Shown here one piece after another: positions 774 through 43,177 of a stretch of 64,000 nucleotides of DNA. The stretch covers positions 202,075-266,074 of the forward strand of contig CAYPCX010000001.1 of the NCBI GenBank assembly GCA_964409365.1. Direction: 5' to 3'. Positions within the stretch are counted from its first letter, which is position 1; each line of letters opens with the position of its first letter. Both the position numbers and the translations under genes were made by a program. The notes beneath the pieces are model-generated. The model was not told the origin of the DNA. It searched no databases and worked only from the letters and a program-made list of their open reading frames with translations. The stretch comes from an uncultured Planctomycetia bacterium. Its GTDB lineage: Bacteria > Omnitrophota > Gorgyraeia > Tantalellales > Tantalellaceae.

Positions 774-838
774 ACTGAGGTTCTGGGGACACATCTGTAT
801 AAGCGCATGTAGACGAGCAGACGTGTCCCCAGAATATA
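774..838 (+). terminator. REP-like stem-loop terminator, family copy 1
   Basis: Stem TTCTGGGGACACaTCTG ... CAGACGTGTCCCCAGAA is followed by a T-rich run. The same about 65-nt element recurs at four other sites. Confidence 0.6.
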
Positions 839-859
839 TTTTTTATTTGAGGAAATATC

Positions 860-1909
860 ATGATGAAGAAGAAGGAATGTTACAATGTGGCGGTGATGGG
901 CGCGACCGGAGCGGTCGGTGCGCAGTTCCTGTCGATACTGGAAGAAAGGGACTTTCCTATAGATGAGATCCGTCTTCTTGCCAGCGAGAGATCTCTTGGC
1001 AAGAAACTGGTCTTCAGAGGAAAGGAGCATGAGGTGCAGGTGCTCGGGGAAGACTCTTTCGGCGGGATCGATATAGTTCTCGCTTCAGCCGGGGCCTCGA
1101 GGAGCAAAGAGTTCCTGCCGTCCGCTGTTGAAGCCGGCGCGGTCTGCGTGGATAATTCAAGCGCGTTCCGCATGGATGAGGATGTGCCCCTTGTAGTACC
1201 GGAAGTTAACCCGCATGCCATCGAAAAGCATAAAGGTATCATAGCCAACCCCAACTGTTCCACTATACAGATGGTTCTCCCCTTATGCGCTATACACAAT
1301 GCCGCGCGCATGAAAAGGGTCGTCGTTACCACTTACCAGTCCGTCTCAGGGGCCGGACAAAAGAACATACGCGAGATGGAGAGCCAGGTAATGGCCCTGA
1401 GCAAAAAAAAGACCCATTTCGGTGTAGGAGAACATAATATCTCCGCCGAGATGGTAAAAGAATTTCCGCATCAGATAGCATACAACCTGATACCGCACAT
1501 AGACGTTTTCCTGGAGAACTTTTACACCAAAGAAGAGATGAAGATGGTCAACGAGACCCGCAAGATCATGGAGCTTGAGGGTCTTCCGGTCACCGCGACC
1601 TGTGTGCGTGTGCCTGTCTACTACGCCCATTCTGAAAGCGTGAACGTCGAGACCGAGAAAAAGCTTACCCGTGAAGAAGTGATAGACCTCCTGAAGGGTT
1701 TTCCGGGGGTCATTGTTGTCGACGATCCTTCCGGAGCGAAGTATCCTATGCCGATAGACGCCGAAGGCAGGGACGAGGTCTTCGTGGGACGCATCAGGGA
1801 GGACGACTCCGTCGCCAACGGCATCAATCTGTGGGTCGTCGCCGACAACCTGAGAAAAGGCGCCGCTCTCAACGCGATCCAGATCGCGGAACACCTTATT
1901 ACCCGCTGA
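860..1909 (+). CDS. asd: Aspartate-semialdehyde dehydrogenase
   Basis: N-terminal NAD-binding VAVMGATGAVG and the active-site motif NPNCSTIQMV. Full length is 349 aa. Confidence 0.9.
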   Translation: MMKKKECYNVAVMGATGAVGAQFLSILEERDFPIDEIRLLASERSLGKKLVFRGKEHEVQVLGEDSFGGIDIVLASAGASRSKEFLPSAVEAGAVCVDNSSAFRMDEDVPLVVPEVNPHAIEKHKGIIANPNCSTIQMVLPLCAIHNAARMKRVVVTTYQSVSGAGQKNIREMESQVMALSKKKTHFGVGEHNISAEMVKEFPHQIAYNLIPHIDVFLENFYTKEEMKMVNETRKIMELEGLPVTATCVRVPVYYAHSESVNVETEKKLTREEVIDLLKGFPGVIVVDDPSGAKYPMPIDAEGRDEVFVGRIREDDSVANGINLWVVADNLRKGAALNAIQIAEHLITR

Positions 1910-1910
1910 C

Positions 1911-2010
1911 GATGACAAGTTACAGAAGTCAGATGACAGAAGTCAGATTATCTGTTCTCTGTTTTCTGACCCCTGACTTCTGTTATCTGACATCTGTCTT
2001 CTGTCCTCTG
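1911..2010. repeat. Purine-rich/pyrimidine-rich mirrored hairpin element (GACAGAAG / CTTCTGTC family)
   Basis: The left half consists of cagaagtcagatgacagaagtcagat repeats. The right half consists of ctgttctctgttttctga...atctgtcttctgtcctctg. The element lies between the asd stop and the truA start. Confidence 0.6.
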
Positions 2011-2015
2011 AGAAC

Positions 2016-2750
2016 ATGCGTAATATCAAGTTGACGATAAGTTACGACGGTACGGGCTACAAAGGCTGGCAGGTCCAGGCCAACGGCACGACCGTCCAGG
2101 AAGTCCTCGAGAAAGCCATAGAGAAGGTCTCGGGCAGGCACTACCGTGTTCATGGCGCCAGCCGTACGGATGCCGGTGTTCACGCCAACGCGCAGGTCGC
2201 TCATTTCAAGACGCGATCCGCGATACCCGTCGGGAAAATACCCGTTGCGCTGAATGCCGTTCTTCCCGGGGACGTGGCCGTGGTCCGGGCCGAGGAAGTG
2301 CCGGAAGATTTTCACTCACGTTTCGACGCAAGATCGAAAATATACAGGTACTACGTGATGAATTCGGACAACAGGGACCCTTTCAGGGAAAAATATTCAT
2401 GGAGACTGCCGTACAATCTCAACGTGTCGCTGATGAAAAGGGAAGCTGCCAGGCTTCTCGGACGGCACGATTTCAGGTCCTTCCAGGCGAAAGATAAGAG
2501 GGAAAGGTCCTCGGTACGGAAAGTCTGTCGTATCGGTATCAAAAAGAAGAAAGATATTATAACAATCGAAATAGAAGCCGACGGTTTCGTGTACAATATG
2601 GCGCGGAATATCGTAGGAACGCTCATCGATATCGGAAGAGGGTACATGCCCCAAGGCAGCATGAAAAAGATACTGGGTACCAGGGACCGTACGACAGCGG
2701 GCCCGACGGCCCCGGCCAAAGGCCTCTTTCTCGTAGAAGTCAAATACTAA
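2016..2750 (+). CDS. truA: tRNA pseudouridine(38-40) synthase
   Basis: ISYDGTGYKGWQVQ and the RTDAGVHA catalytic Asp motif. Length is about 244 aa. Confidence 0.9.
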   Translation: MRNIKLTISYDGTGYKGWQVQANGTTVQEVLEKAIEKVSGRHYRVHGASRTDAGVHANAQVAHFKTRSAIPVGKIPVALNAVLPGDVAVVRAEEVPEDFHSRFDARSKIYRYYVMNSDNRDPFREKYSWRLPYNLNVSLMKREAARLLGRHDFRSFQAKDKRERSSVRKVCRIGIKKKKDIITIEIEADGFVYNMARNIVGTLIDIGRGYMPQGSMKKILGTRDRTTAGPTAPAKGLFLVEVKY

Positions 2751-2810
2751 CCCCACCCAAATAGCTAACTTTTTACATATTAACAATATTGTGTAACCCT
2801 TTTTCTTTTC

Positions 2811-2839
2811 TTGACAAGTATTTTATCTTGTTATATACT
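2811..2839 (+). promoter_or_regulatory. Sigma70-like promoter (TTGACA - 17 nt - TATACT)
   Basis: A consensus -35 and a near-consensus -10 sit 36 nt upstream of the small ORF at 2875. Confidence 0.45.
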
Positions 2840-2874
2840 TTCCCTATACTTGTTACATAAAAAGAGATCGCGCC

Positions 2875-3054
2875 ATGATAAGAAAACTCAGGTTCAAGTT
2901 CTACGCTACGGTTTCGGACAGGGGACAGATCTTTATCCCGAAAGTCCTTCAGGATTATTTCGGGATAAGGAATAGGGATAAAGTGGTTTTTAAAGTGCAG
3001 GATGACGGAAGTGTCGTATTTGAAAAGAAGAAGGGAGAAAAGGATGGGCAATAG
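2875..3054 (+). CDS. AbrB/MazE (SpoVT-AbrB swapped-hairpin) family small DNA-binding protein, 59 aa
   Basis: The pattern RGQIFIPKVLQDYFGIRNRDKVVFKVQDDGSVVFEKK matches the AbrB/MazE consensus (GRvvIP..lr..LgI..gD.l.i..dd.kiil.k). It is absent from the ORF track because it is shorter than 60 aa. Confidence 0.5.
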   Translation: MIRKLRFKFYATVSDRGQIFIPKVLQDYFGIRNRDKVVFKVQDDGSVVFEKKKGEKDGQ

Positions 3055-3223
3055 TAAACTGCACTCGCATAGGGTCACTCTGGGTGAAAGGCGAAGATCG
3101 AACAAGAAGAGAAGTGACATGCTCCGGAAGGGGGTGGATAAAGGGGAGCTCCAGCAAGTGTTCAACACTTATTACAAGGACCAGGTCAAGGCCTTGTACA
3201 GAGCCATTTTTAGAAATAAATAA
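3044..3223 (+). CDS. Small basic hypothetical protein (59 aa), overlapping the upstream AbrB-like gene by 11 nt
   Basis: ATG at 3044 is preceded by GGGAG. The product is rich in Arg/Lys. No family was recognised. Confidence 0.35.
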   Translation: MGNSKLHSHRVTLGERRRSNKKRSDMLRKGVDKGELQQVFNTYYKDQVKALYRAIFRNK

Positions 3224-3295
3224 TACTACGTATTTCGAGATATTCCTTAACCGGCGTTTGGTCAGCTGAGCGTTTGAGGGGCTTTTAAAGCCATT

Positions 3296-3391
3296 ACGGG
3301 AGAGCACAGAGTATCCCGTGCTCAAACAGTTTTTGCCCAGCGGCAGGAGCGACAGCAAAAAAACTGCGCCGGGACACTCTGTGCTATCCCG
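3296..3391. repeat. Long imperfect inverted repeat (about 21-bp arms, about 50-nt loop)
   Basis: GGGAGAGCACAGAGTATCCCG ... CGGGACACTCTGTGCTATCCCG, with two mismatches. It lies between the small cassette and the rplM promoter. Confidence 0.4.
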
Positions 3392-3468
3392 GATCAGCTA
3401 AAGAGCCCCGCTCAATACAGCTTAAACACCGGCAAGCAATATCCTGTAAAATCCCGCTATATTATTTA

Positions 3469-3497
3469 TTGACAAAACCCCCCAAATATGTTATTTT
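3469..3497 (+). promoter_or_regulatory. Sigma70-like promoter for the rplM-rpsI operon (TTGACA - 17 nt - TATTTT)
   Basis: Consensus -35 with a 17-nt spacer. It lies 55 nt upstream of the rplM start. A GGAGAG ribosome-binding site sits 6 nt before the ATG. Confidence 0.5.
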
Positions 3498-3552
3498 GAC
3501 AACTCTGAATTCCTTGTAATTAAAGGAGTATTAGCGTTTTTGGAGAGAATAG

Positions 3553-3981
3553 ATGAAGACCAAGCTGTTAAAACATAATGAAGCGGGGCACGAGTGGTAT
3601 ATCGTGGATGTGTCCGACAAAGTGCTCGGCAGGGCCGCGACTCAGATAGCCACGCTGTTAAGCGGTAAGTACCGCCCTGATTTCACGCCTCACGTGGACG
3701 GCGGGGCGGGGGTCATAGTCATCAATTGCGAGAAGGTAAGGGTGACCGGCAAAAAACCGGTCCAGAAGGTCTACAAAAGGTACTCGGGATATCCGGGCGG
3801 CCTTAAAGAGACCCCTTACAGCGAGATGTTCGAAAAGGACCCTAAATACGTTGTAAGGCACGCGGTCAAAGGCATGCTCCCGAAGAACAAGCTCGGGTCG
3901 AGGATGCTGAAGCGTCTTAAGTTGTATACCGGCGCGGAACATTCTCACGCGGCACAGAAACCTAAGGAAAAAAAGATATAG
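3553..3981 (+). CDS. rplM: 50S ribosomal protein L13
   Basis: Start HEWYIVDV... and the GRAATQIA...GVIVINCEKV signature. Length is 142 aa. Confidence 0.95.
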   Translation: MKTKLLKHNEAGHEWYIVDVSDKVLGRAATQIATLLSGKYRPDFTPHVDGGAGVIVINCEKVRVTGKKPVQKVYKRYSGYPGGLKETPYSEMFEKDPKYVVRHAVKGMLPKNKLGSRMLKRLKLYTGAEHSHAAQKPKEKKI

Positions 3982-3996
3982 GACAAAGAGGCACTG

Positions 3997-4392
3997 ATGG
4001 GAGAACTGGTAGAATTTGTGGCTGTAGGCAGACGTAAAGAATCGGTGGCAAGGGTCAGGATACGGCCTGGAAAAGGCCAGATCAAGGTCAACCGCAGGGG
4101 ATTCGATGATTATTTCCCCAGGGAGACGGACAGAATAATCGTCATGCAGCCGTTCAACACGACGGGTACCGCCGAAAAGTTCGACGTTCTGGCAAACGTC
4201 TCAGGCGGAGGGATCAGCGGTCAGGCGGGAGCGCTTCGCCACGGGATCGCGAGAGCCCTCTTGAAGAGCGATGACAACCTCAGGATCACCCTGAAGAAAG
4301 CGGGTTTTCTTACCAGGGATCCGAGGGCGAAAGAACGCAAGAAGTACGGCAAAAAACGCGCCCGTAAAAGTTTCCAGTTCTCAAAACGTTAG
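3997..4392 (+). CDS. rpsI: 30S ribosomal protein S9
   Basis: [12 protein letters not shown] and the C-terminal [17 protein letters not shown]. Length is 131 aa. Confidence 0.95.
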
Positions 4393-4418
4393 TCAGATTT
4401 ATCCGGAGAGGTTGCAAA

Positions 4419-4450
4419 GCAGGTCGCGTTTCCCGCGACCTGCTTTTTTT
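4419..4450 (+). terminator. Rho-independent terminator
   Basis: GCAGGTCGCG-tttcc-CGCGACCTGC followed by TTTTTTT. Confidence 0.7.
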
Positions 4451-4602
4451 ATATATGAGCCCATTGCGGGGAATAGGGGATATAAGTATTGACACGGTAA
4501 ATCTTTTATTTTATACTTTCCCTTTCAGCGGGATTTATTAATAACTATTACACATAAGCAAAGTTATATAAAAGGGCGGCACAGCCCTGAAAGGAAGATA
4601 CC

Positions 4603-5616
4603 ATGATAAAGGTCGGAGTTGTAGGGGCGACAGGGTATACCGGCGAAGAACTGGTGGACGTGCTTTTGCGCAACCCGGAAGTGGATATTACCGCGCTTGC
4701 CGCGCTAGTGGAAGAGGAAGCCCCTTTTTCAGAGATATATCCGCGATTCGAAAAGAAACTGTCGCTTGTCTGCAAGAACCTGGACGTGGAAGAAGTGGCC
4801 GCTGCCTGTGAACTCGTGTTCTTGGCTCTTCCGCATACCGTGTCCATGGAGATCGCGCCGATGTTCCTTAAAAAAGGGAAGAGAGTGATAGATCTCAGCG
4901 CGGATTACCGTCTTCCCCGGGAACTGTACGAGAAATGGTATTCGACCAGGCACGATGACAAAGATAACCTCCATAAAGCGGTATACGGTCTTCCGGAGCT
5001 TAACAGGGAGGAGATAAAAGGGGCCTCGCTCGTGGCGAACCCGGGGTGTTACCCGACCGGTGTCATTCTGGCTCTTCTTCCTCTGGCAAAAGAGCTCGCA
5101 GAGGCGGGGCAGGACATAATAGTTGATTCGAAGAGCGGTGTGACCGGTGCCGGCAGAAAGGCTTCGATATCACTTTCTTTCGGCGAGTTGGACGAGAACT
5201 TCAAGTGTTACAGGGCGAACGAGCACCAGCATATCCCTGAGATGGAGCACGTGCTTTCACAGGCGGCTTCTTCCGAAGTGCGGGTGAATTTCACGCCGCA
5301 TCTCCTTCCGTTGAGGAGAGGGATATTATCAACGATATATATCCGGCACGAAGGGTTGCCGCCGGAAGATAAGATCCGGAAGATGTACGCAAACCGGTAT
5401 GCCGGCGAACCTTTCGTCCGCTTTATGTCCTCGGTGGATATGCCCCAGCTTTTGGGCGTCGCCGGTTCGAACTATTGCGACATAGGGTTAAAAGTGGCGC
5501 GCGGCATGCTGATAATAGTATCGGCCATAGACAATTTGCTCAAGGGTGCGAGCGGGCAGGCTGTCCAGAACATGAACATAATGTACGGCCTCGACGAGAA
5601 GACGGGGCTCTTATAA
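4603..5616 (+). CDS. argC: N-acetyl-gamma-glutamyl-phosphate reductase
   Basis: IKVGVVGATGYTGEEL and the active-site motif NPGCYPT. Length is 337 aa. Confidence 0.95.
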   Translation: MIKVGVVGATGYTGEELVDVLLRNPEVDITALAALVEEEAPFSEIYPRFEKKLSLVCKNLDVEEVAAACELVFLALPHTVSMEIAPMFLKKGKRVIDLSADYRLPRELYEKWYSTRHDDKDNLHKAVYGLPELNREEIKGASLVANPGCYPTGVILALLPLAKELAEAGQDIIVDSKSGVTGAGRKASISLSFGELDENFKCYRANEHQHIPEMEHVLSQAASSEVRVNFTPHLLPLRRGILSTIYIRHEGLPPEDKIRKMYANRYAGEPFVRFMSSVDMPQLLGVAGSNYCDIGLKVARGMLIIVSAIDNLLKGASGQAVQNMNIMYGLDEKTGLL

Positions 5617-5634
5617 TGTCGGAGCGGTGAGAAG

Positions 5635-6819
5635 ATGAACAAGTTGCCAAAGGGATTTTTTGCTAACGGCATCCATTGCGGCCTGAAAAAGAAGAGAAAA
5701 GACCTTGCGCTTTTCTATTCGGAGAAAGACTGCAAGGTGTCGGCGCTTTTTACCACTAACGTGGTAAAGGCCGCCCCGGTGATCCTGGGAATAGAGGCCG
5801 TTCGTAAGAAGAAGCCCGTAAAAGCGGTTTTGATAAACAGCGGGAACGCCAATTGTATGACCGGTTCGCGTGGTCTCGAGGACGCCAGGGATATGGCGGC
5901 CATGGCCGCGAAAGAGCTCGGTGTTCCTAAAACAGCGGTACTTGTCTCATCGACAGGGGTAATAGGCCAAGCGATGCCGATGGAGCCCTTTGAAAAAGGG
6001 ATCCACCGGCTTGTGAGGGGGCTTTCACGATCGGGACTTCATGACGCGGCCGAAGGGATAATAACGACCGACCGGTTCCCGAAGAAGATGACACGCACGT
6101 TCACCGCGGGCGGTAAGACGGTGACGATGACCGGTGTGGCGAAAGGCGCGGGGATGATACACCCGAACATGGCCACGATGCTCTGTTATGTCATGACGGA
6201 CGCGAACATAACGAAAAAAGCAATGGACAAGGCGCTTTTTTCGAGTGCGGAGGTATCTTTCAATGCCATTACCGTCGACGGGGACATGAGCACGAACGAT
6301 ACGGTCATGCTTCTCGCGAACGGAGAGGCCGGGAACAGGGTGATAGGAAATAGCGGCCGTGATCTTGCCGTGTTCCAGGAGAATCTCGACCAGGTCATGA
6401 AAGAGCTGGCGAAGATGATCGTCCGGGACGGTGAAGGCGCGAGCAAATTCATTGAAGTGCACGTAAAAGGCGCCAGGACGAAGACGGGAGCGAAAAAAGC
6501 GGCCGAAGCAATAGCAAGTTCCATGCTCGTCAAGTGCGCCGTTCAGGGAGGCGACCCCAACTGGGGGCGTATAGCTTCCTCGGTAGGTTCCAGCGGTATC
6601 CGGTTCGATCCGGACAAAATGGAGATAAAGATGGACGGCGTGACTTTTTTCAAAAAGGGGAGTGTGGTCTCTTCGAGAGAAGAGGAAACGGGGCACGTTT
6701 TCAAGGGGAAAGACGTTTCGATAGAAGTGAACCTTCATCGCGGGAAGAGCGAAGCTACGTTCTGCAGCTGCGATATCTCGAAAAGATATATCACGCTTAA
6801 CTCGTATTATACGACATGA
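5635..6819 (+). CDS. argJ: Bifunctional glutamate N-acetyltransferase / amino-acid acetyltransferase
   Basis: The self-cleavage-site region ATMLCYVMTDANI. Length is 394 aa. Confidence 0.95.
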   Translation: MNKLPKGFFANGIHCGLKKKRKDLALFYSEKDCKVSALFTTNVVKAAPVILGIEAVRKKKPVKAVLINSGNANCMTGSRGLEDARDMAAMAAKELGVPKTAVLVSSTGVIGQAMPMEPFEKGIHRLVRGLSRSGLHDAAEGIITTDRFPKKMTRTFTAGGKTVTMTGVAKGAGMIHPNMATMLCYVMTDANITKKAMDKALFSSAEVSFNAITVDGDMSTNDTVMLLANGEAGNRVIGNSGRDLAVFQENLDQVMKELAKMIVRDGEGASKFIEVHVKGARTKTGAKKAAEAIASSMLVKCAVQGGDPNWGRIASSVGSSGIRFDPDKMEIKMDGVTFFKKGSVVSSREEETGHVFKGKDVSIEVNLHRGKSEATFCSCDISKRYITLNSYYTT

Positions 6820-6820
6820 T

Positions 6821-6868
6821 TCAGAAGACAGAAAACAGATTATCTGACATCTGTCTTCTGTTATCTGG
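6821..6868. repeat. R/Y mirrored hairpin (CAGAAGACAGA ... TCTGTCTTCTG), same family as 1911-2010
   Basis: An 11-bp perfect stem immediately after the argJ stop. Confidence 0.6.
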
Positions 6869-6891
6869 AACAAGGCAGTAACGAGGTTGGA

Positions 6892-7746
6892 ATGGAAGAA
6901 GCGATCAAGAAAAGCGAAGTCCTGATAGAAGCGCTGCCTTATATCAAGCAGTTCTTCAACAAGGTAGTGGTGATAAAGTACGGCGGCAGCGCCCTGCATA
7001 ACATGCAGGTCCGCGATATGGTGCTGCAGGATATCGTCTTCATGCGGTATGCCGGCATGAAGCCCGTGCTTGTCCACGGAGGAGGCCCCAATATCACGGA
7101 GCGCCTTAAGGAAGCGGACATCGAGACGAAGTTCGTCGACGGGTTGAGGGTGACCTGTGAAAGGTCCATGGGAGTCGTTGATTCCGTTCTTATGGAGGTG
7201 AACAAGGCTCTCGTCCGGGAGATAAACGAGCTTGGAGGAGAGGCGTTCGGCCTCAGCGGGAAAGAGAACAGCATGATACAGGCGGCGAAACGTGCGGGCC
7301 CGGACCTGGGATATGTCGGGAGCGTCGAAGCGATCGATACTACCATACTGAACCGGCTTATCAATACCAATATTATCCCCGTGGTATGCCCCGTAGGGAA
7401 AGGCAAGGACGATAAGCTTTATAACGTAAACGCGGACGAGGCGGCCAGCAGCCTGGCGATAGCTCTGGACGCGGAAAAGTTCGTCGTGTTGACGAACGTG
7501 CGCGGGGTCATGAAGGACATGGAAGACCCGGGTACCCTTTTCCATTCGCTGACGATGGAGACGGCCGACCATCTTATTGAGACAGGCGTGATAGAAGGGG
7601 GTATGGTGCCTAAGACAAAGGCATGTCTCCACGCGATGAAGGGAGGCGTGAGAAAGTCGCATATAGTCGATGCGAACCTTTCCCATGCGCTGCTTCTCGA
7701 GATATTCACTGACGAGGGAATAGGTACGGAGATCATACATGGATAA
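6892..7746 (+). CDS. argB: Acetylglutamate kinase
   Basis: VIKYGGSAL, LVHGGGP and NVNADEAA motifs. Length is 284 aa. Confidence 0.95.
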   Translation: MEEAIKKSEVLIEALPYIKQFFNKVVVIKYGGSALHNMQVRDMVLQDIVFMRYAGMKPVLVHGGGPNITERLKEADIETKFVDGLRVTCERSMGVVDSVLMEVNKALVREINELGGEAFGLSGKENSMIQAAKRAGPDLGYVGSVEAIDTTILNRLINTNIIPVVCPVGKGKDDKLYNVNADEAASSLAIALDAEKFVVLTNVRGVMKDMEDPGTLFHSLTMETADHLIETGVIEGGMVPKTKACLHAMKGGVRKSHIVDANLSHALLLEIFTDEGIGTEIIHG

Positions 7747-7747
7747 T

Positions 7748-7862
7748 ACTGAGGTTCTGGGGACACGTCTGTGTAGACAACATGTAAACGACAAAACTGA
7801 GGTTCTGGGGACACGTCTGTGTAGACAACATGTAAACGACCAGACGTGTCCCCAGAATATAT
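7748..7862 (+). terminator. REP-like terminator, tandem (left-arm half copy plus complete copy)
   Basis: actgaggttctggggacacgtctgtgtagacaacatgtaaacgac occurs twice. Only the second copy is completed by cagacgtgtccccagaatatatttc. Confidence 0.6.
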
Positions 7863-7883
7863 TTCTAGATCGACGAGGATAAC

Positions 7884-9976: not shown

Positions 9977-9990
9977 GGATGAATAATGGA

Positions 9991-10094
9991 AGTGTCAAAG
10001 TGTCATCGTGCGCTTACTAGTGTCAGAGTGTCAAAGACAGCACTATGACACTTTGACACTAGCGAACACAGTGAGCGATGATACTCTGACACTG
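9991..10094. repeat. About 103-bp complex palindromic element (GTGTCA/TGACAC family), copy 1
   Basis: AGTGTCAAAGTGTCA ... TGACACTTTGACACT 15-bp inverted arms plus nested AGTGTCAGAGT/ACTCTGACACT. It lies between argF and argG. Confidence 0.65.
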
Positions 10095-10109
10095 TAAAGG
10101 AGATAGATC

Positions 10110-11285: not shown

Positions 11286-11308
11286 CAAGGATAAAGGAAA
11301 AAGTAACA

Positions 11309-11411
11309 AGTGTCAAAGTGTCATCGTGCGCTTACTAGTGTCAGAGTGTCAAAGACAGCACTATGACACTTTGACACTAGCGAACGCAGTGAGCGATGAT
11401 GCTCTGACACT
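11309..11411. repeat. About 103-bp complex palindromic element, copy 2 (about 97% identical to copy 1)
   Basis: The same sequence as 9991-10094 with three substitutions. It lies between argG and argH. Confidence 0.65.
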
Positions 11412-11426
11412 TAACAAGGAGTTACC

Positions 11427-12803
11427 ATGGGTAAGTTATGGGGTGGACGGTTTTCGGGCAAAGAGATGCACCCGGATGTGCTTGGTTTCACGTCGAGTCT
11501 TGATATCGACAAGATACTCGCTAAGTATGACTGTCTGAGCAGCAGGGTGCACGTGGAAGTACTGGCGAAAAGCGGATATATCTCACCCGAGGAAAAGAAA
11601 AAGCTGCTTAAGGCCCTGGATGAACTTTCCATCGGGATAGATAACGGGACCTGGTCGCCGTCGGGGCACGAAGATATCCACTCCGCGGTACAGGACTACG
11701 TGGAGGGCAAGGTCCCCGAAGCCGCGAAGAAGATGCACACGGGCCGGTCGCGTAACGAACAGGTAGTAAACGACGTACGCTTGTATTGCAAGGATAGTAT
11801 TATCCGGATAAAAGGCTTGATCTTCGATCTTCAGTGCGAGTTGGTAGACCTCGCCGACAGACGGGCGGACGTGATAATACCGGGGTACACCCATCTTAAT
11901 CGCGCGCAGCCGGTGCTTTTTGCGCACCTGCTTCTGGCATACGTGGAGATGCTCGAACGGGATATCGGACGCCTTAACGGTGCGCTCAAGCGCTGCGACG
12001 TGTCCGTTATGGGCTCAGGCGCGATAGCGGGCTCGGCCCTGGAACTCGATCGTAAGCTCGTATCCGAAAAGCTTGGCTTCAGCATCGTGTCCACCAACAG
12101 CATGGACGCGGTCAGCGACAGGGATTTTATGACGGAAGTGGTGGCAGCGCTGTGTTTTATAGCGGTCCACCTTTCACGGATGAGCGAAGACCTTATCCTG
12201 TACAGTACTTCGGAATTCGGTTTCCTGGAGGTGGGAATGGAATACTGTACAGGAAGTTCGCTGATGCCGCAGAAAAAGAACCCGGATGTACTGGAACTTA
12301 TACGCGGGAGGACCGCCGGTGTTATAAGCGCGTTGAATTCTTTGTTCGTCCTGCAGAAGGGCCTGCCGCACGCTTACAACAGGGACCTCCAGGAGGACAA
12401 GAAGCCGCTCTTCGAATGCGTGGAGACGGTGGCGGGGGAGCTCGCCATGATGGGCGCGCTTGTAAAGACGATAAAGCTCAAGGAAGAAGCGGCCGGGAAG
12501 GCCGTCGAGGACGAATTTCTTTATGCCACGGACCTGGCAGAATATCTCGTGCGCAAGGGTGTGGCTTTCAGGGACGCGCATGACGCTGTGGGAAAGATAG
12601 TAAAGTATTGCGTCGATAAGAAGATAAATATCTCGGACCTTTCCATATCGGAGCTAAAGGATTTTTCCGATGAGCTTGAAGAGGACGTGTACGGCCTTCT
12701 CAACCCCGAGACTTCGGTGAACAACAAGAGAACCGTCGGGAGCACGAAGCCCGATATGGTGAAAAAAGAGATAGCGGGCTGGAAAAAGAAACTCAGGAGA
12801 TAA
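11427..12803 (+). CDS. argH: Argininosuccinate lyase
   Basis: MGKLWGGRF start and the fumarate-lyase signature GSSLMPQKKNPD. Length is 458 aa. Confidence 0.95.
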   Translation: MGKLWGGRFSGKEMHPDVLGFTSSLDIDKILAKYDCLSSRVHVEVLAKSGYISPEEKKKLLKALDELSIGIDNGTWSPSGHEDIHSAVQDYVEGKVPEAAKKMHTGRSRNEQVVNDVRLYCKDSIIRIKGLIFDLQCELVDLADRRADVIIPGYTHLNRAQPVLFAHLLLAYVEMLERDIGRLNGALKRCDVSVMGSGAIAGSALELDRKLVSEKLGFSIVSTNSMDAVSDRDFMTEVVAALCFIAVHLSRMSEDLILYSTSEFGFLEVGMEYCTGSSLMPQKKNPDVLELIRGRTAGVISALNSLFVLQKGLPHAYNRDLQEDKKPLFECVETVAGELAMMGALVKTIKLKEEAAGKAVEDEFLYATDLAEYLVRKGVAFRDAHDAVGKIVKYCVDKKINISDLSISELKDFSDELEEDVYGLLNPETSVNNKRTVGSTKPDMVKKEIAGWKKKLRR

Positions 12804-12804
12804 G

Positions 12805-14055: not shown

Positions 14056-14864
14056 AATATGACGTCAGTTTCACCAAAGCCGTGGCAAGCGGTAACGACT
14101 TTATCGTTATAGACAACAAAAGCGGCGAGCTCGATCCAAAGCAGTTTGATTACGGCGAGATGGCGAAGGACCTTTGCCGAAGGCGGCTTTCGGTGGGCGC
14201 GGACGGTATCCTGGTCCTGGAAAGTTCGGACCGGGCGGACTTCAGGATGCGTGTGATCAATCCCGACGGTTCCGAAGTAGAGATGTGCGGCAACGGGCTC
14301 CGCTCGGCCGCGTTCTATGCGGCGAACTGCGGATGGGGGAAGGAACTCTCCGTTGAGACCCTGGCCGGTATCCTGAAGGCCTCGGTCACGGGCGGCAGCG
14401 TAAAGGTCAGGATGACCGACCCTAAGGATGTGAGGCTCGATATCAACCTGGGTGTAGGACAGAACCTGATGAAGGTCCATTTCGTCAACACGGGTGTCCC
14501 GCATGTTGTGCACCTGGTCGACGATGTCGATAGATATCCGGTCAGGGAAGAAGGCCGGAAGATCCGCGAGCATGCCATGTTCGCCCCAGAGGGGGCCAAC
14601 GCCAATTTTGTCGGGGATATCACGAAAAGCGGCGCTTCCCTCAGGACGTACGAACGCGGGGTCGAAGATGAAACACTGGCATGCGGTACGGGTACCGTGG
14701 CTTCCGCCGTGGTGCTGGGCCTTCTGGGTATGGCTGTTTCGCCGGTAAAGATGCTTACCCGGAGCGGGGAAACGCTGACGGTCCATTACGGTCTTTCGGG
14801 GCACAAAGTGACCGATGTCTACCTCGAGGGCGCGGCAGACGTCGTGTATGAAGGAAGGGTCTAG
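14052..14864 (+). CDS. dapF: Diaminopimelate epimerase
   Basis: FTKAVASGNDFIVID and the catalytic motifs CGNG and CGTG. The start overlaps the lysA stop. Confidence 0.9.
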   Translation: MKYDVSFTKAVASGNDFIVIDNKSGELDPKQFDYGEMAKDLCRRRLSVGADGILVLESSDRADFRMRVINPDGSEVEMCGNGLRSAAFYAANCGWGKELSVETLAGILKASVTGGSVKVRMTDPKDVRLDINLGVGQNLMKVHFVNTGVPHVVHLVDDVDRYPVREEGRKIREHAMFAPEGANANFVGDITKSGASLRTYERGVEDETLACGTGTVASAVVLGLLGMAVSPVKMLTRSGETLTVHYGLSGHKVTDVYLEGAADVVYEGRV

Positions 14865-14890
14865 GGTCAACCTCATTAAAGGAGGAAAAG

Positions 14891-15757
14891 ATGATAAAGG
14901 GTTCGTATGTAGCTATCGTTACGCCATTCAAGAACGGTAAGGTGGACGAGAAGGCGTTCCGCAAGCTTATAGAGTTCCATATAGACAAGGGAAGCGACGG
15001 TCTTGTGCCGTGCGGTTGCACCGGGGAAGCCGCCACGCTGAGCATGGCCGAGCAGAAACGGCTTATCAAGATAACCGTGGAGACGTCAGCGAGACGCATC
15101 CCGGTGATCGCCGGGACCGGCTCTAACAACACGGAAGAAGCGCTGGAGTTGACCACTTTCACCCGGAAGGCAGGATGTGACGGGGCGCTCATGATAACGC
15201 CTTATTACAACAAACCGACGCCGGAAGGGCAGTACCGGCATTACGCGAGAGTCGCCAGCAAGGTCGACATCCCCATAATGCTGTACAACGTTCCTTCACG
15301 GACGGGGATATCCATGTCCCCGGCCACGGTAGCGCGCCTCGCGAAGATAGATAATATTGTCGCGATAAAGGAGGCGGCCGGCAGCGTACAGCAAGTGATG
15401 GATATATTGAACCTCTGTGATATCACGGTGATGAGCGGCGATGACGCCATGACCCTTCCGTTCATGTCCGTGGGCGCGGCAGGCGTGGTAAGCGTGGTGG
15501 CCAATATCATCCCCGGCCGGGTGCACGATCTTGTCCAGACCTTTCTGGACGGCAGGACAGAGACCAGCCGCAATATCCATTATGGGATATTGGAATTGTG
15601 CAAGGCCATGTTCATCGAGACCAATCCCATACCCGTGAAAACAGCCCTCAGCATAATGGGCATGGTGAACGAGGAGTGGCGGCTTCCGCTTTGTGAGATG
15701 CGCAAAGAGAACAAGGAAGCGCTGAAAACGGTGCTGAAAAAGTTCAAATTAATTTAG
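14891..15757 (+). CDS. dapA: 4-hydroxy-tetrahydrodipicolinate synthase
   Basis: VAIVTPF, GTTGE-like CGCTGEAATL and the Schiff-base lysine region. Length is 288 aa. Confidence 0.9.
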   Translation: MIKGSYVAIVTPFKNGKVDEKAFRKLIEFHIDKGSDGLVPCGCTGEAATLSMAEQKRLIKITVETSARRIPVIAGTGSNNTEEALELTTFTRKAGCDGALMITPYYNKPTPEGQYRHYARVASKVDIPIMLYNVPSRTGISMSPATVARLAKIDNIVAIKEAAGSVQQVMDILNLCDITVMSGDDAMTLPFMSVGAAGVVSVVANIIPGRVHDLVQTFLDGRTETSRNIHYGILELCKAMFIETNPIPVKTALSIMGMVNEEWRLPLCEMRKENKEALKTVLKKFKLI

Positions 15758-15760
15758 GTT

Positions 15761-15836
15761 GCAGGTATCAGGTAGCAGGTGTCAGGCGGAGGGAGAAGAC
15801 CTGTTTTTTCCAAAGACCTGAAACCTGAGACCTGAC
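15761..15836. repeat. CAGGT-heptamer / ACCTG-heptamer mirrored hairpin element
   Basis: gcaggtatcaggtagcaggtgtcagg ... cctgaaacctgagacctgaca. Between dapA and dapB. Confidence 0.55.
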
Positions 15837-15849
15837 AAGGAGAGCATAC

Positions 15850-16593
15850 ATGGTGCGAATAGGTATAGCCGGGGCGTGCGGCAAGATGGGCAGGAGGATA
15901 GCGGTCCTGGCCGCGGCGGACCCTGAGATAAAGATCATCTCGGCGCTGGAGAAGGAAGACTCGCCCGAAAAAGGTAAGGACCTTGGGGATGTCATAGGTG
16001 CGGGCAAAATGGACGTACCGGTCATGACCGGTACGGACGAGGCCTTACGGGACACGGAGTGTCTGGTAGATTTTACCCTGCCGGGATCGACGCTGGAACA
16101 TGTAGCGGTATGCCGGGAAAAGAAAGTGCCCATGGTGATAGGCACTACCGGTCTGGGGGAGGAGGCAGAGGACGTTATCGGGGAAGCTTCAAAAGAAATA
16201 CCGATAGTGTTCTCCCCCAACATGGCGATAGGAGTTAACGTTCTGTTCAATATCGTGAGCGAAGCGGCGCGGGTCCTCGGCCGCGATTTCAGCATAAAGG
16301 TGGATGAGACCCATCATGTCCACAAGAAGGATTCCCCGAGCGGGACGGCTAAGATGATAGCGAAGATCATCAGGGAAGCCTCCGGCGTGGACGCTCCGGT
16401 AAAGGCGTTCAGAGAGGGAGAGGTCATAGGCAACCACGGTATCGTGTTCGACGGTGAGTATGAGAATCTGGAGATCCGGCACGATGCGAAAAGCAGGGAT
16501 GTGTTCGCGGCAGGCGCGATAAAAGCGGCAAAATTCGTTGTGGGAAAAAAGCCGGGTTTGTACAACATGACGGATGTGCTGGGGCTGAGGTAG
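15850..16593 (+). CDS. dapB: 4-hydroxy-tetrahydrodipicolinate reductase
   Basis: MVRIGIAGACGKMGRRI NAD(P)-binding start and the DapB C-terminal domain. Length is 247 aa. Confidence 0.9.
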   Translation: MVRIGIAGACGKMGRRIAVLAAADPEIKIISALEKEDSPEKGKDLGDVIGAGKMDVPVMTGTDEALRDTECLVDFTLPGSTLEHVAVCREKKVPMVIGTTGLGEEAEDVIGEASKEIPIVFSPNMAIGVNVLFNIVSEAARVLGRDFSIKVDETHHVHKKDSPSGTAKMIAKIIREASGVDAPVKAFREGEVIGNHGIVFDGEYENLEIRHDAKSRDVFAAGAIKAAKFVVGKKPGLYNMTDVLGLR

Positions 16594-16600
16594 ACGACAG

Positions 16601-16672
16601 GGACTGAGGTTCTGGGGACACGTTTCTTGTAACGGCAGGGGAACGACGAAACATGTCCCCAGAATATATTTC
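16601..16672 (+). terminator. REP-like terminator, copy with a compensatory inner stem (GTTTC/GAAAC)
   Basis: ttctggggacacgtttc ... gaaacatgtccccagaatatatttc. The outer stem is conserved and the inner stem co-varies. Confidence 0.6.
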
Positions 16673-16695
16673 TAATATAAGCGAAAAGGAAAAAG

Positions 16696-17865
16696 ATGGA
16701 AATCGAGTTTACGAACAGGTTGAAGAAGCTTCCTCCTTACTTATTCGAGGAGATAGACAGAGCTAAACAGAAAGCCGAGGACGAAGGAAGGCCTATTATC
16801 GATCTGGGAGTGGGGGACCCTGACCGGCCGACGCCGGATTTCATCGTAAAAAAACTCTACGAAGCCAGCAAAGATCCCTCTACCCACAATTATGCCCTGA
16901 ACAGGGGGCTTAAGGACCTTCGTGAGGAGATGGCGCACTGGTACCAGACGCGTTTCGGCGTTGAACTAGACCCGGATACCGAAGTCCTGCCTCTTCTCGG
17001 TTCCAAGGAAGGGATAGCCCATATCCCGCTTGCTTTCGTCAACCCGGGGGATGCCGTGCTGTTGCCCGATCCCGGGTACCCTCCTTATAATTCCGGGACC
17101 ATATTCGCCGGAGGGGAGGCGATAAAGATGCCGCTTTTGCGGGAGAACGGTTTCCTGCCGGACCTGGACTCTATAGACGGGAGCGTCGCGCGTAAAGCCA
17201 GGCTGATGCATCTGAACTATCCGAACAATCCCACGGGCGCGGTGTGCGACAAGGCGTTTTACGAGAAAGCGGTAGCGTTCTCCCGGAAGTATGACGTGAT
17301 CATATGTTCCGACGCGGCGTATACCGAACTCAGTTACGACGGGTATGTTCCTCCGAGTTTTCTCGAGGCAGATGGAGCGAAGGAAGCGGGAATAGAATTT
17401 CATTCACTTTCCAAGACCTTTAATATGACCGGCTGGAGGGTAGGGATGGCGGTAGGCAACGCGAAGGTCCTTAACGGCCTGGCTAAGGTCAAGTCGAACA
17501 TAGATTCCGGAATATTCACGGCTATACAGATCGCTTCCATAGAAGCATTGAAGAACGCCGATAAAGTAAAAAAAGAGTTCACTAAGATCTATGCGGAACG
17601 GCGCAACGTGTTCATAGACGGTCTCAGGGCCGCCGGCTGGGATGTGCTTAAACCATTGGCGACTTTTTACGTGTGGGCGCCTGTCTTCGGCGGTTTCGAT
17701 TCGATGTCCCTGGCCAAAGCGATGCTCGAAAAAGCCGATATCGTCGCGACCCCCGGCGTGGGTTTCGGCGAAAGCGGGGAAGGGTATGTAAGGATGACCC
17801 TTACCCGGGATGCCGCTCAGCTCAAGGAAGCGGTCGACAGGATAAAGAAGACGTTTTTCAGCTGA
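16696..17865 (+). CDS. Class-I aminotransferase, probable LL-diaminopimelate aminotransferase (DapL-type), judged from context
   Basis: SKTFNMTGWRVG PLP-Lys motif and a fold-type I aminotransferase. It sits directly after dapB, and no dapD/dapC/dapE genes were seen. Confidence 0.6.
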   Translation: MEIEFTNRLKKLPPYLFEEIDRAKQKAEDEGRPIIDLGVGDPDRPTPDFIVKKLYEASKDPSTHNYALNRGLKDLREEMAHWYQTRFGVELDPDTEVLPLLGSKEGIAHIPLAFVNPGDAVLLPDPGYPPYNSGTIFAGGEAIKMPLLRENGFLPDLDSIDGSVARKARLMHLNYPNNPTGAVCDKAFYEKAVAFSRKYDVIICSDAAYTELSYDGYVPPSFLEADGAKEAGIEFHSLSKTFNMTGWRVGMAVGNAKVLNGLAKVKSNIDSGIFTAIQIASIEALKNADKVKKEFTKIYAERRNVFIDGLRAAGWDVLKPLATFYVWAPVFGGFDSMSLAKAMLEKADIVATPGVGFGESGEGYVRMTLTRDAAQLKEAVDRIKKTFFS

Positions 17866-17875
17866 CGGTCCACTC

Positions 17876-18376
17876 ATGGCGACGGCTTACCTTTGTATCG
17901 GATCGAACGTAGGGGATAAACGGTCGAACTGTGAAGAAGCCGTCAGGCGGTTACAGGCGGCCGGGGACATCAAGGTCCGGGCCCGGTCCGGTCTTTACAG
18001 GACGGAACCCGTAGGGGGCCCGCCCCAGGAAGAATACCTCAACGGTGCGCTCGGCATCGAGACAACGCTGTCTCCCGGGGATCTGCTCCGCGTCCTCAAG
18101 GATATCGAAAAGGACATGGGACGCAGAGAGACGAAAAAGAACCACCCCCGCATCATCGATATCGATATCCTTTTCTATGATGATCTGGTGATGAACTCCG
18201 AAGGGTTGACGATACCGCATCCCCGCGTACATGAAAGGTATTTTGCGCTGAAAGGGCTCGCGGAAATAGCTCCTTTTGCGTCGCATCCGGTCGTCGGCAA
18301 GACCGTGAGTGAGTTATACGAAGAGGTCGGGGAACAGAAGACAGAGGACAGAAAACAGAAAACAGAAACGAAATGA
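17876..18376 (+). CDS. folK: 2-amino-4-hydroxy-6-hydroxymethyldihydropteridine pyrophosphokinase
   Basis: AYLCIGSNVGD, RTEPVGGP and RIIDIDILFY motifs. The C-terminal tail EQKTEDRKQKTETK is encoded by a GACAGAA-type repeat. Confidence 0.85.
   Translation: MATAYLCIGSNVGDKRSNCEEAVRRLQAAGDIKVRARSGLYRTEPVGGPPQEEYLNGALGIETTLSPGDLLRVLKDIEKDMGRRETKKNHPRIIDIDILFYDDLVMNSEGLTIPHPRVHERYFALKGLAEIAPFASHPVVGKTVSELYEEVGEQKTEDRKQKTETK
18333..18370. repeat. Purine-rich half of the GACAGAA-type element, lying inside the folK 3' end
   Basis: cagaagacagaggacagaaaacagaaaacagaaacg. No pyrimidine-rich partner follows. Confidence 0.5.
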
Positions 18377-19224
18377 AACTGATCACGGCGGTAAAAGAGA
18401 TGAGGGAATATTCCCGCGGCGTGAAACGCGAGGGAAAACAAGTGGGTTTTGTCCCTACCATGGGATATCTGCACGAAGGCCATCTCAGCCTGATAAGGAC
18501 CGCTCGCGAAGAGTGCGATGCGGTCGTTGTGAGCATCTTCGTGAACCCGACGCAGTTCGGGACCGGTGAAGATATTGAAAGATATCCCCGCGACCTGGAA
18601 AGGGATAAAGAGCTTGCCGAAAAAGCCGGGGTTGATCGTTTATTCACGCCTTCCGCCGAGGAGATATACCCGCGAGGGTATATCACAAGTGTAAAAGTAA
18701 AGGGAAGCCTCACGGACACGATGTGCGCAAGGTCGCGTCCCGGTCATTTCGAAGGAGTAGCCACTGTCGTTGCCAAGCTTTTCAACATAGTCGAACCCGA
18801 CAGGAGTTACTTCGGCCAGAAAGACGCCCAGCAGGCGGTCGTTGTAAAGCGTATGGTGAAAGACCTGGACCTTCCCGTGGAGATACGCGTCATGCCTATA
18901 GTCCGAGAAGAGGACGGGCTGGCGATGAGCTCGCGCAACACGTATCTGAACCCGGACGAGAGGGAACAGGCGCTGGGACTTTTTCGTTCTTTGAACACGG
19001 CCGAAAAAATGGTCTCAGACGGCGAACTTTCGGCAGGCAGAATAAAAGAAGAAATGACAAAGGTTTTGAAAAAAGGCGGATATGTAAAAATAGATTATAT
19101 TGAGATAAGGGACGCGGATTCGCTTGAGCCGTTGGAGAGAGTAAGGGATAACACGTTGATAGCGGTAGCCGCGTTCGTGGGGGAAACAAGGTTGATAGAT
19201 AATATTATCATCAACAAGAACTGA
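18373..19224 (+). CDS. panC: Pantoate--beta-alanine ligase
   Basis: VPTMGYLHEGHLSLI HIGH-like motif. Length is 283 aa. The start overlaps the folK stop. Confidence 0.9.
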   Translation: MKLITAVKEMREYSRGVKREGKQVGFVPTMGYLHEGHLSLIRTAREECDAVVVSIFVNPTQFGTGEDIERYPRDLERDKELAEKAGVDRLFTPSAEEIYPRGYITSVKVKGSLTDTMCARSRPGHFEGVATVVAKLFNIVEPDRSYFGQKDAQQAVVVKRMVKDLDLPVEIRVMPIVREEDGLAMSSRNTYLNPDEREQALGLFRSLNTAEKMVSDGELSAGRIKEEMTKVLKKGGYVKIDYIEIRDADSLEPLERVRDNTLIAVAAFVGETRLIDNIIINKN

Positions 19225-19290
19225 GATTCTGGGGACACGTCTGTGTAGACGACATGTAAACTACCAGACATGTCCCCAGAATATATTTCC
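19221..19290 (+). terminator. REP-like terminator copy (overlaps the panC stop codon)
   Basis: ctgagattctggggacacgtctgtgtagacgacatgtaaactaccagacatgtccccagaatatatttcc. Confidence 0.6.
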
Positions 19291-19300
19291 ATAAAGGAGT

Positions 19301-20284: not shown

Positions 20285-20323
20285 CAGGATTACTCTTTTC
20301 TGTTCTCTGTCCTCTGTTTTCTG
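20244..20323. repeat. R/Y mirrored element (CAGAAGA heptamers / TCTGTYC heptamers), spanning the nadA stop
   Basis: cagatgacagatgacagacgtcagaagacagaagacagatgacagg ... cttttctgttctctgtcctctgttttctg. Confidence 0.55.
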
Positions 20324-22900: not shown

Positions 22901-22949
22901 AGTTCCCGGAAATCCTGTCACTTACGTAAGTTGTTTCCCCCGCATCCTA

Positions 22950-23117
22950 CTTGCCCCTCGGCGTGGATACGACGTGCAGGATAAGTTCGACCACATAACT
23001 TATGTTCACTTCGTTCCATAAGTTATGGTCTCACTTGCCCCTTGGCGTGGATACGACGTGCAGGATAAGTTCGACCACATAACTTATGTTCACTTCGTTC
23101 CATAAGTTATGGTCTCA
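22950..23117. repeat. Exact tandem duplication of an 84-bp unit (2 copies, 1 mismatch), each with an internal 11-bp hairpin
   Basis: cttgcccctYggcgtggatacgacgtgcaggataagttcgaccacataacttatgttcacttcgttccataagttatggtctca occurs twice. Each unit begins with a -35-like TTGCCC. Confidence 0.8.
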
Positions 23118-31358: not shown

Positions 31359-31404
31359 CAAAATCCAAATGACAAAAGTTTTGTCATTTGTGCTTTGATA
31401 TCTG
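31346..31404. repeat. AATGACA heptamer repeats plus an AAATGACAAAAG/TTTTGTCATTT hairpin, overlapping the aspS stop
   Basis: aatgacaaatgacaaaatccaaatgacaaaagttttgtcatttgtg. Confidence 0.5.
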
Positions 31405-31425
31405 TCATTAACAAAGGGGGACGGT

Positions 31426-43100: not shown

Positions 43101-43177
<77 letters not shown>

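Follow-up and report, generated by a model that had tools for sequence, protein, structure and literature searches.

A family of hairpin repeats, probably REP/REPIN-like, between co-directional genes of Candidatus Omnitrophota

The window analysed here is a stretch of 64,000 nt from an uncultured bacterium placed among the Omnitrophota by GTDB (GCA_964409365.1, contig CAYPCX010000001.1, positions 202,075 to 266,074). It lies in a 337,834-bp metagenomic contig (ENA ERZ27256778 k141_1613178), of which 81 kb were covered, comprising the window, 10 kb upstream and 7 kb downstream. Towards its left end the window holds leuB and asd and the series argJ-argB-argD-argF-argG-argH-lysA-dapF-dapA-dapB-dapL-folK-panC-nadA-nadX, an order that is shared by five genomes (folK was not called in locus L077). 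A hairpin element of about 70 nt occupies four gaps between these genes (Table 1). An earlier, sequence-only reading of this DNA had placed a repeat after an idh-like gene, argB (as a left-half and a full copy), dapB and panC; all of these copies are present, and the idh-like gene is leuB. The four full copies and the left-half copy are all on the + strand. Two further arrays were found 1–5 kb upstream of the window on the same contig, one between two ABC-ATPase genes and one between leuD and leuB. There is no copy at 20–64 kb of the window or in the 7 kb past it. This gives 6 arrays per 81 kb of contig, all inside a 24-kb block of biosynthetic operons.

The 18-mer TGTCCCCAGAATATATTT, formed by the right arm and the tail, is identical in 4/4 copies of the window, while 0.01 occurrences are expected from shuffled sequences. 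The left arm GAGRTTCTGGGGACAC has eight matches in the window (0.02 expected for the pattern), namely five element left arms, two right arms matched on the opposite strand and one intragenic match. The latter, a sixth match with 15 exact nucleotides of the left arm, was rejected as a copy and is a coincidence: the DNA there codes for TRFWGQV, a conserved peptide of a Na/Pi cotransporter that is found in all five orthologues. Folded as RNA, the hairpins of the window form a stem of 17–18 bp with −29.6 to −36.4 kcal/mol (z −4.7 to −7.5). At argB/argD the half unit and the copy behind it form a tandem repeat with a period of 48 nt (1.9 copies, 100% match).

Table 1. Copies of the hairpin element and other features of the window (positions in nt of the window).
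Feature	Position	Strand	Location	Details
Copy 1 (full)	774–848	+	leuB/asd gap	foot ACTGAGG 774–780; left arm 781–797; right arm 818–834; tail TATATTTTTTATTT 835–848; directly followed by asd Shine-Dalgarno GAGGA, then ATG at 860; 63.4 bits; −29.6 kcal/mol
Left-half unit, 48 nt	7748–7795	+	argB/argD gap	foot, left arm and loop, without right arm; first unit of a two-left, one-right array; begins 1 nt past argB stop
Copy 2 (full)	7796–7869	+	argB/argD gap	left arm 7803–7819; right arm 7841–7857; tail 7858–7869; argD ATG 7884; 67.1 bits; −36.4 kcal/mol
Copy 3	16603–16676	+	dapB/dapL gap	left arm 16610–16626; right arm 16648–16664; inner stem GTTTC/GAAAC, separate subfamily; 73.9 bits
Copy 4	19220–19294	+	panC/nadA gap	foot ACTGAGA; left arm 19227–19243; right arm 19265–19281; 66.8 bits
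Left-arm match, not a copy	21601–21615		inside Na/Pi transporter gene	
Ordinary terminator	4416–4446			
Cousin-family weak match	31786–31869	+	between two + strand ORFs (open reading frames)	GGGACAGGTT...AAACCAGTCCC; TTATTTT tail; 19.8 bits, E 0.06
Cousin-family hairpin	43512–43590	−	repeat-rich gap after tRNA-Arg	GGGGACAGGTTT...AAACCAGTCCCC; TTATTTTTG tail; 36.7 bits
Heptamer palindromes	1908–2011, 6814–6867, 18320–18368, 20228–20323, 31344–31409		asd/truA, argJ/argB, folK/panC, nadA/nadX and post-aspS gaps	ACAGAAG/CAGATGA; other arm TCTTCTG-type
Second heptamer family	15755–15835, 35257–35289, 41825–41920, 58591–58704		intergenic	inverted arrays; GGTCTCA/CAGGTnT on one side, CCTGAAA/ACCTGAn on the other
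88-nt tandem repeat	42826–43112		by tRNA-Arg(CCT) 43101–43177	3.3 copies
~104-nt repeat	9990–10093, 11308–11411, 43643–43693		first two on either side of argG	first two 98% identical
84-nt tandem duplication	22949–23116		between Na/Pi transporter and IMPDH genes	perfect; 2.1 copies

From 5′ to 3′ the consensus unit consists of a foot (A)CTGARG, a left arm TTCTGGGGACA-C-NNNNN, a loop of 13–28 nt, a right arm NNNNN-R-TGTCCCCAGAA and a tail TATATT-TYT-ATT (TATATTTTTATT). The stem of 17–18 bp is preceded by the foot tetranucleotide GARG (GAGG or GAAG). Its lower 11–12 bp (TTCTGGGGACA/TGTCCCCAGAA) and the tail are conserved over all species. The upper 5–6 bp vary by genome and subfamily yet remain paired: at least 12 different inner stems were found, all of them paired (e.g., GTCTG/CAGAC, GCCTG/CAGGC, TCTTC/GAAGA, CCTTC/GAAGG, GTTCC/GGAAC, TTTTG/CAAAA, GTTTG/CAAAC, ATCTG/CAGAT, TTTAC/GTAAA and GTTTC/GAAAC). 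In an alignment of 60 copies 87.8% of the cells were paired, compared to 81.3% after shuffling and 32–52% when the partner was slid, and 77 cells had changed on both sides versus 24.7 in shuffles. Compensation also reaches the outer stem, where the variant TTCCGGGG is matched by CCCCGGAA in some copies. The pairing-preserving exchange of the inner stem that had been noticed in the dapB copy is part of this variation, with GTTTC/GAAAC in place of GTCTG/CAGAC and two pairs altered on both sides. Since a related hairpin, likewise with a GTTTC inner stem, is located at the same dapB/dapL junction of the Omnitrophota metagenome-assembled genome (MAG) JBDRKO01, the dapB copy is probably old and not a local compensatory event.

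The loops are less uniform. A shared loop motif GTAGAC...ACATGTAAAC had been described for the window; it is present in two of the four copies and missing from the others, and the only loop motif common to the wider family is CATGTAGACGAC in the 3′ part of the loop. The tail occurs as TATATT, TATAAT, TATACT or TATAGT, resembling a −10 box (TATAnT) with a nearly invariant T6. The arms are not self-complementary, and the only alternative pairing is a weak one between the loop and the inner part of the left arm (CGTCT/AGACG). Position 12 of the stem carries a C·A mismatch in 86/100 copies and in all lineages, and one subfamily has a fixed A·C at position 6. In total the stems contain 127 A·C but 10 G·U cells on the sense strand, and the reverse-complement strand folds more stably in 75/92 copies. 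These counts cannot decide which strand is functional, because the excess stems from two inherited positions; we regard it as a possible recognition feature.

The left unit, which comprises the foot, the left arm and most of the loop (46–49 nt), is often repeated in tandem before a single right arm. Across the fetched DNA we counted 70 cases with one left unit and one right arm, 7 rows (6 distinct arrays) with two left units, 2 arrays with three and 1 with four, whereas a repeated right arm never occurred. Such arrays are present in the genome of the window, in JAYEOV01 and in the Ga018043x species. The units of one array are nearly identical, which means that left units arise locally. Isolated right halves and decayed left halves were seen as well; lone arms occur at chance rate (32 versus about 35 expected).

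To find out how widely the element is distributed, we scanned one genome per species (185,579 species, 596 Gb) for the 18-mer, and 74 stretches were returned. The matches fall mainly into two MAGs, JBDRKO01 (42) and JAYEOV01 (17), followed by Candidatus Aadella gelida (3) and JBDRBI01 and JBDRNI01 (2 each), while unrelated taxa gave 13 single matches versus about 17 expected by chance in 596 Gb. The genomes hit all differ from the species of the window, with a DNA identity of about 73% between syntenic genes. In JGI metagenomes, a scan for the two-arm pattern yielded 23 more stretches, most of them from a single additional species (Ga0180431/Ga0180432). With a covariance model built on 60 copies, about 85 sense-strand copies were counted in 619 kb of fetched DNA. 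Overall we arrive at about 100 distinct hairpin copies in at least 7 related Omnitrophota genomes. The census proposed by the sequence-only reading has thus turned up many further copies, and its main point, that this is one sequence family and not a set of independent terminators, is borne out by the additional copies on the contig and in related genomes and by arms that are steadier than the loops.

Known RNA families do not account for the element. At the gathering threshold only the tRNA-Arg passes an Rfam search of the window, and at E ≤ 10 a single element copy gives only miRNA-like hairpin noise far under threshold, so a riboswitch, a leader or another known RNA was discarded as an explanation. 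In the literature searched, no report ties Omnitrophota to REP (repetitive extragenic palindromic) or other palindromic repeats. We therefore regard the element as a new family of a known element kind in an unstudied phylum. To our knowledge the Omnitrophota are uncultured, nothing is known of the gene-expression signals and mobile DNA of this phylum, and no REP system has been described in it.

Within a genome, per-site diversity is 0.02–0.04 in the left arm and 0.16–0.39 in the loop, and the stem arms are 8–10 times less variable than the loops. Between the species of the window and the Ga018043x species the elements are 84–94% identical, compared to 66–79% for genes. These data demonstrate that the sequence of the element is under constraint and that the arms stay constant while the loops drift.

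The positions of the element are less stable than its sequence, as seen from a comparison of syntenic junctions. The argB/argD spacer has 137 nt in the window, where the element is present; in relatives it has 65 nt with other hairpins or 108 and 124 nt with palindromes of 7-nt period, and 3 nt in Aadella gelida. The panC/nadA junction is filled in the window, holds a divergent relative in Aadella gelida (39 bits) and a left-half relic in JBDRKO01, and consists of 39 nt of unrelated sequence in locus L077 and of 2 nt in L076. At leuB/asd the window is filled and JBDRKO01 has a different palindrome. The reverse was seen at hisS/aspS and at recO/tRNA-synthetase, where the window is empty (15 and 19 nt) and the element is present in L099 and L102, respectively. 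Junction occupancy thus differs between syntenic genomes; the sites are not conserved regulatory positions, and elements come and go.

We then looked at the neighbouring genes, using a simple codon-model caller trained on the annotated genes of the contig. No copy lies inside any called gene, and copies with two called neighbours are all located between co-directional genes. An avoidance of convergent and divergent junctions does not follow from this (p = 0.15, not significant), as 97% of all junctions are tandem (358/369 called junctions in the window and related loci are co-directional). The orientation relative to the flanking genes is biased, with 61 sense and 17 antisense copies (78% and 22%; p = 6e-7). 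Four antisense copies and one sense copy are found in the housekeeping cluster PSP1-metG-tatD-CAAX protease-mtnA. A strict rule by which the replication strand sets the orientation was rejected, since locus L020 combines, in one co-directional cluster, four antisense copies with a single sense copy, and contig JBDRKO010000026 shows both orientations among + strand genes. As a separate observation, the coding strand is strongly purine-rich in the window and related loci (GC skew about +0.1, AT skew about +0.1).

In the genome of the window the element fills the entire spacer. The distance from the stop codon to the foot is 0–9 nt; on the other side, the Shine-Dalgarno sequence and the start codon follow 12–25 nt past the start of the tail. 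Three copies had been said to overlap the stop codon of the upstream gene; in fact only one does, with the panC TGA (19222–19224) inside the foot, while the stops of leuB (763–765), argB (7744–7746) and dapB (16591–16593) end 8, 1 and 9 nt before ACTGAGG. Across the family, the TGA of ACTGAGG serves as the stop of the upstream gene in four cases. At hypC/hypD in locus L088 (element at 11653–11711, − strand) HypC gains nine element-encoded codons and stops in the loop. The HypD reading frame that opens with the ATG behind the tail matches the HypD profile only from its position 32 onwards, and the insertion may have removed the 5′ end of hypD. Liang, Rudd and Deutscher reportedly found in 2015 that terminating ribosomes stall at REPs of E. 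coli if these lie no more than about 15 nt from a stop codon; the element shows the same spacing to the stop codon.

On the downstream side, start codons are located 9–31 nt past the stem. In the Ga018043x species the ATG follows 9–12 nt past the stem without a Shine-Dalgarno sequence (e.g., TATAATTTTATTATG), and family profiles identified the ATGs behind the element as the true N-termini of QueA, TrpG, ThiL and LipA. A clear −35 box is seen in the promoters of the organism itself (TTGACA-17-TATACT). No such box is present in the element, and none of its sites was called on the + strand by the promoter scan; an outward sigma-70 promoter was discarded because there is only a −10-like box and no −35 box is kept across subfamilies. 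The scan for the terminator consensus does not call the elements either, as the loop exceeds 8 nt. With true starts abutting the stem, no room for a promoter and no −35 box, the sequence indicates that transcripts must read through the element for the downstream genes to be expressed.

Taken together, we favour the view, to which we assign a probability of roughly 0.55, that the copies are lineage-specific, non-autonomous interspersed hairpin repeats of the REP/REPIN/MITE kind (MITE, miniature inverted-repeat transposable element) in one clade of Candidatus Omnitrophota, and, at about the same probability, that the repeat colonises short spacers between co-directional genes. An enzyme encoded elsewhere would recognise the conserved stem base, foot and tail and copy the element, probably with the folded single strand as its substrate, much as REPs are handled by HUH/Y1 enzymes. 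Most copies would be transcribed in sense within operons, so that a strong stem-loop with a U-rich stretch behind it arises between the cistrons. Read-through by RNA polymerase would occur at a useful rate, with the element acting at most as a leaky terminator or as a hairpin protecting the 3′ end, which is the most economical effect that we infer for the RNA, and the A/U-rich tail would then act as an unstructured leader of the next cistron.

REPINs have conserved arms and a spacer that is variable yet forms a hairpin (PMC3337134). Like the REPs and REPINs of E. coli and Pseudomonas (PMC3116915, PMC3337134), the element is extragenic, occurs in tens of copies per genome and is lineage-specific, with a sequence type that persists across related species. 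The likeness extends to a pair of conserved inverted arms that fold into a long hairpin around a spacer which differs between copies and yet pairs, to a tetranucleotide that is conserved at the foot on the 5′ side, and to tandem higher-order arrangements and decayed half copies. The differences are also clear. The foot is GARG instead of GTAG (GT[AG]G), neither arm is itself a small palindrome, at 13–28 nt (54–86 nt arm to arm) the spacer is short, the A/U-rich 3′ tail is conserved and asymmetric, only the left arm is multiplied in tandem, and no REP-associated tyrosine transposase (RAYT), whose gene is typically flanked by the repeats, was found near the copies (about 0.9 Mb, at lowered sensitivity). 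The earlier description as REP-like is supported by the REPIN-type arms and spacer and by the filled and empty junctions; the REP hallmark GTAG is replaced. Because GARG replaces GTAG and the arms are not small palindromes, we call the element REP/REPIN-like and do not file it as REP.

Other repeat classes share part of these features. As in enterobacterial BIMEs (bacterial interspersed mosaic elements), the element is found between genes of one operon, and the long intergenic regions of JBDRKO01 contain the hairpin as part of a mosaic in which it alternates in fixed order with further short repeats; these are arrays of 7-nt period and not BIME linker motifs. Correia/NEMIS (Neisseria), ERIC, RUP and BOX MITEs are likewise short and non-autonomous with terminal inverted repeats (arms of 17–18 bp here), and Correia/NEMIS-type MITEs are inserted beside genes, co-transcribed with them and able to supply promoters, terminators and RNase sites. 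Correia elements, in contrast, measure 100–155 bp, duplicate a TA target and carry an IHF site, whereas the present element has about 70 nt and asymmetric ends.

Several observations weigh against the favoured view. No mobilising partner was found: a phmmer search for Y1 transposases and RAYTs among ORFs of at least 70 aa in the roughly 0.9 Mb flanking the copies had a best E value of 0.15, with approximate query sequences (IS200, IS608, E. coli RAYT) that lower the sensitivity. The check for a RAYT suggested by the sequence-only reading has thus given no RAYT or other Y1 transposase in this DNA. ORFs bracketed by two copies are housekeeping genes (FtsQ-, FtsA-, ThrC-, FtsW- and aspartate-kinase-like), and the precomputed Pfam annotation of the 81 kb of contig lists neither a transposase nor an integrase. 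The flanks of the six contig copies share no direct repeat, hence no target-site duplication is visible there, and an autonomous parent element with the same ends was not seen in the sampled loci. The sense bias is the main observation for which a purely selfish element does not account. The invariance of the right arm is in part a product of construction, since most copies were gathered with an exact right-arm pattern; TATATT-type tails are also present in 11 copies found without this pattern and in 6 copies on the contig of the window that were not selected by pattern. Intra-hairpin templated repair could maintain the complementarity of the arms without selection. Finally, all that is said here about RNA is deduced from DNA.

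Of the other explanations, the one that fares best is that the copies are working intrinsic terminators or attenuators whose shared sequence reflects common descent of a "portable terminator". The strong stem (−23 to −37 kcal/mol) is followed by UAUAUUUUUAUU, and the T-rich tail lies downstream on the coding strand in 78% of the copies; like Rho-independent terminators, the elements combine a stem that contains G+C with a U-rich tract behind it, and most stand downstream of a gene in coding-strand orientation. For REPINs flanked by runs of A and T a co-option for attenuation was proposed (PMC3337134). We nevertheless consider this explanation unlikely. The next true start is 9–31 nt past the stem, a distance that holds no −35 box and is too short for a promoter, and the copies sit inside the leu, arg, dap and pan-nad operons, so that efficient termination would silence asd, argD, dapL, nadA, queA, trpG and others. 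The stem of 17–18 bp with its A/U-rich base, the loop of 13–28 nt and the interrupted U-tract are unlike those of Rho-independent terminators, as are the conservation of the sequence genome-wide and between species and the placement within operons, 9–25 nt ahead of the following start codon, and the clear terminator of this genome (Table 1) looks different. The 22% antisense copies leave no U-tail in the transcript, and the same junctions of relatives have only 2–3 nt, which leaves no need for a terminator there. What remains of the word "terminator" in the earlier description is a hairpin followed by a U-rich tail; the nearby start codons and the antisense copies make efficient termination doubtful.

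A more doubtful alternative is an intercistronic expression cassette, in which either the TATAnT tail restarts transcription as a −10 box directly ahead of the next gene, making the element a terminator-promoter insulator, or an RNase cuts in a sequence-specific manner at the stem base. In the RNase version the upstream mRNA would end in a protected hairpin, and the downstream mRNA would have a short 5′ end, A/U-rich or leaderless. The tail variants keep the T-A...T positions that are most important in a −10 box. In one species the arrangement is TATAAT/TATACT-N6-ATG, with the start codon where a leaderless transcript would begin, but in half of the cases without a Shine-Dalgarno sequence only 3 nt separate box and ATG, too short for a transcription start site at the ATG. 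In the genome of the window the Shine-Dalgarno sequence begins 7–14 nt past the box. Conservation of the stem-base sequence is expected of an RNA site recognised by a protein, and the sense bias agrees, but there is no conserved −35 box or TG extension, the + strand promoter scan was negative, and no candidate RNase was identified. Furthermore, the tail in JBDRKO01 is followed by other repeats and the genes begin 50–2500 nt away.

A combined version, in which we have still less confidence, treats the element as a mobile module of operon punctuation: a clade-specific protein would recognise the stem base including the near-universal C·A mismatch and cut the RNA or restart transcription from TATAnT. 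If so, insertion would supply a stop codon or 3′ stabiliser to the upstream gene, an insulator, and an A/U-rich or leaderless start region to the downstream gene, and the other hairpin and 7-nt-period repeats that fill nearly every gap would belong to the same system.

It is very improbable that the arms are binding sites in duplex DNA or DNA-uptake sequences in inverted pairs, comparable to the pairs of DNA uptake sequences (DUS) of Neisseria that also work as terminators. A core of 11–12 nt is indeed kept across species, next to lineage-specific variation and in inverted repeats. Uptake sequences, however, occur about once per kb on both strands and within genes, versus 6 arrays in 81 kb and none in genes here; lone arms are found only at the chance rate given above, and compensatory changes that preserve pairing are not needed for a duplex binding site. 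Integron attC sites between gene cassettes can practically be dismissed. They are suggested by imperfect inverted repeats that have a variable centre, stand directly past ORFs and in places overlap the stop codon, by the uniform orientation of the genes and by the conserved stem mismatch. The flanking genes, however, form syntenic core biosynthetic operons in five genomes and do not represent cassettes, the RYYYAAC/GTTRRRY core sites are missing (GTTCTGG deviates at position 4, CCAGAAT does not fit), the annotated 81 kb contain no integrase, and antisense copies exist.

If the copies are REP/REPIN-like repeats as favoured here, REP/REPIN-like biology is extended to a new phylum, in a form without the REP hallmark GTAG and with no RAYT found so far. 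The missing hallmarks may point to a different mobilising enzyme. Left-only tandem arrays, the conserved C·A mismatch, the asymmetric tail and insertion flush against start codons are unusual traits. The elements separate essential biosynthetic genes, sometimes supply a stop or extra codons to the upstream protein, and abut true starts; they therefore affect gene calling, operon prediction and the assembly of MAGs, several contigs ending in a copy. The 18-mer and the covariance model together provide a simple marker of the clade for metagenomes, and filled and empty junctions are ready markers for evolution at the strain and species level.

Further repeats are found in the same intergenic regions. 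A cousin family with two hairpins in the window (Table 1) shares with the main family a GGGGAC/GTCCCC theme and a T-rich tail, and the divergent panC/nadA copy of Aadella gelida (L078:12737–12821) has a tail of the cousin type. The heptamer palindromes of the window recall the STRR heptamer repeats of cyanobacteria, and in JBDRKO01, JAYEOV01 and Aadella gelida the intergenic regions are dense with similar arrays of 7-nt period that consist of other units. A second heptamer family forms intergenic inverted arrays.

Each unit of the 88-nt tandem repeat consists of the first ~12 nt of the adjacent tRNA gene (GTCCCCGTAGCT) and an unrelated hairpin-former, and the real tRNA begins in the last unit. 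It may represent the scar of an integration site, or it may copy the 5′ end of the tRNA. The ~104-nt repeat contains short repeats of the TGACACT type and a promoter-like site TTGACA-18-GATGAT. The 84-nt duplication has a hairpin CATAACTTATG...CATAAGTTATG, with short matches in the JBDRKO01/JAYEOV01 loci L035, L057 and L061. JBDRKO01 itself has a dispersed palindrome TAGGGGCACGGCATGCCGTGCCCCTA (L036:4270–4300 and 5415–5500; flanks of L019, L034 and L074). As this palindrome occupies the leuB/asd gap of JBDRKO01, the junction that is filled by the element in the window, hairpin families replace each other at this site.

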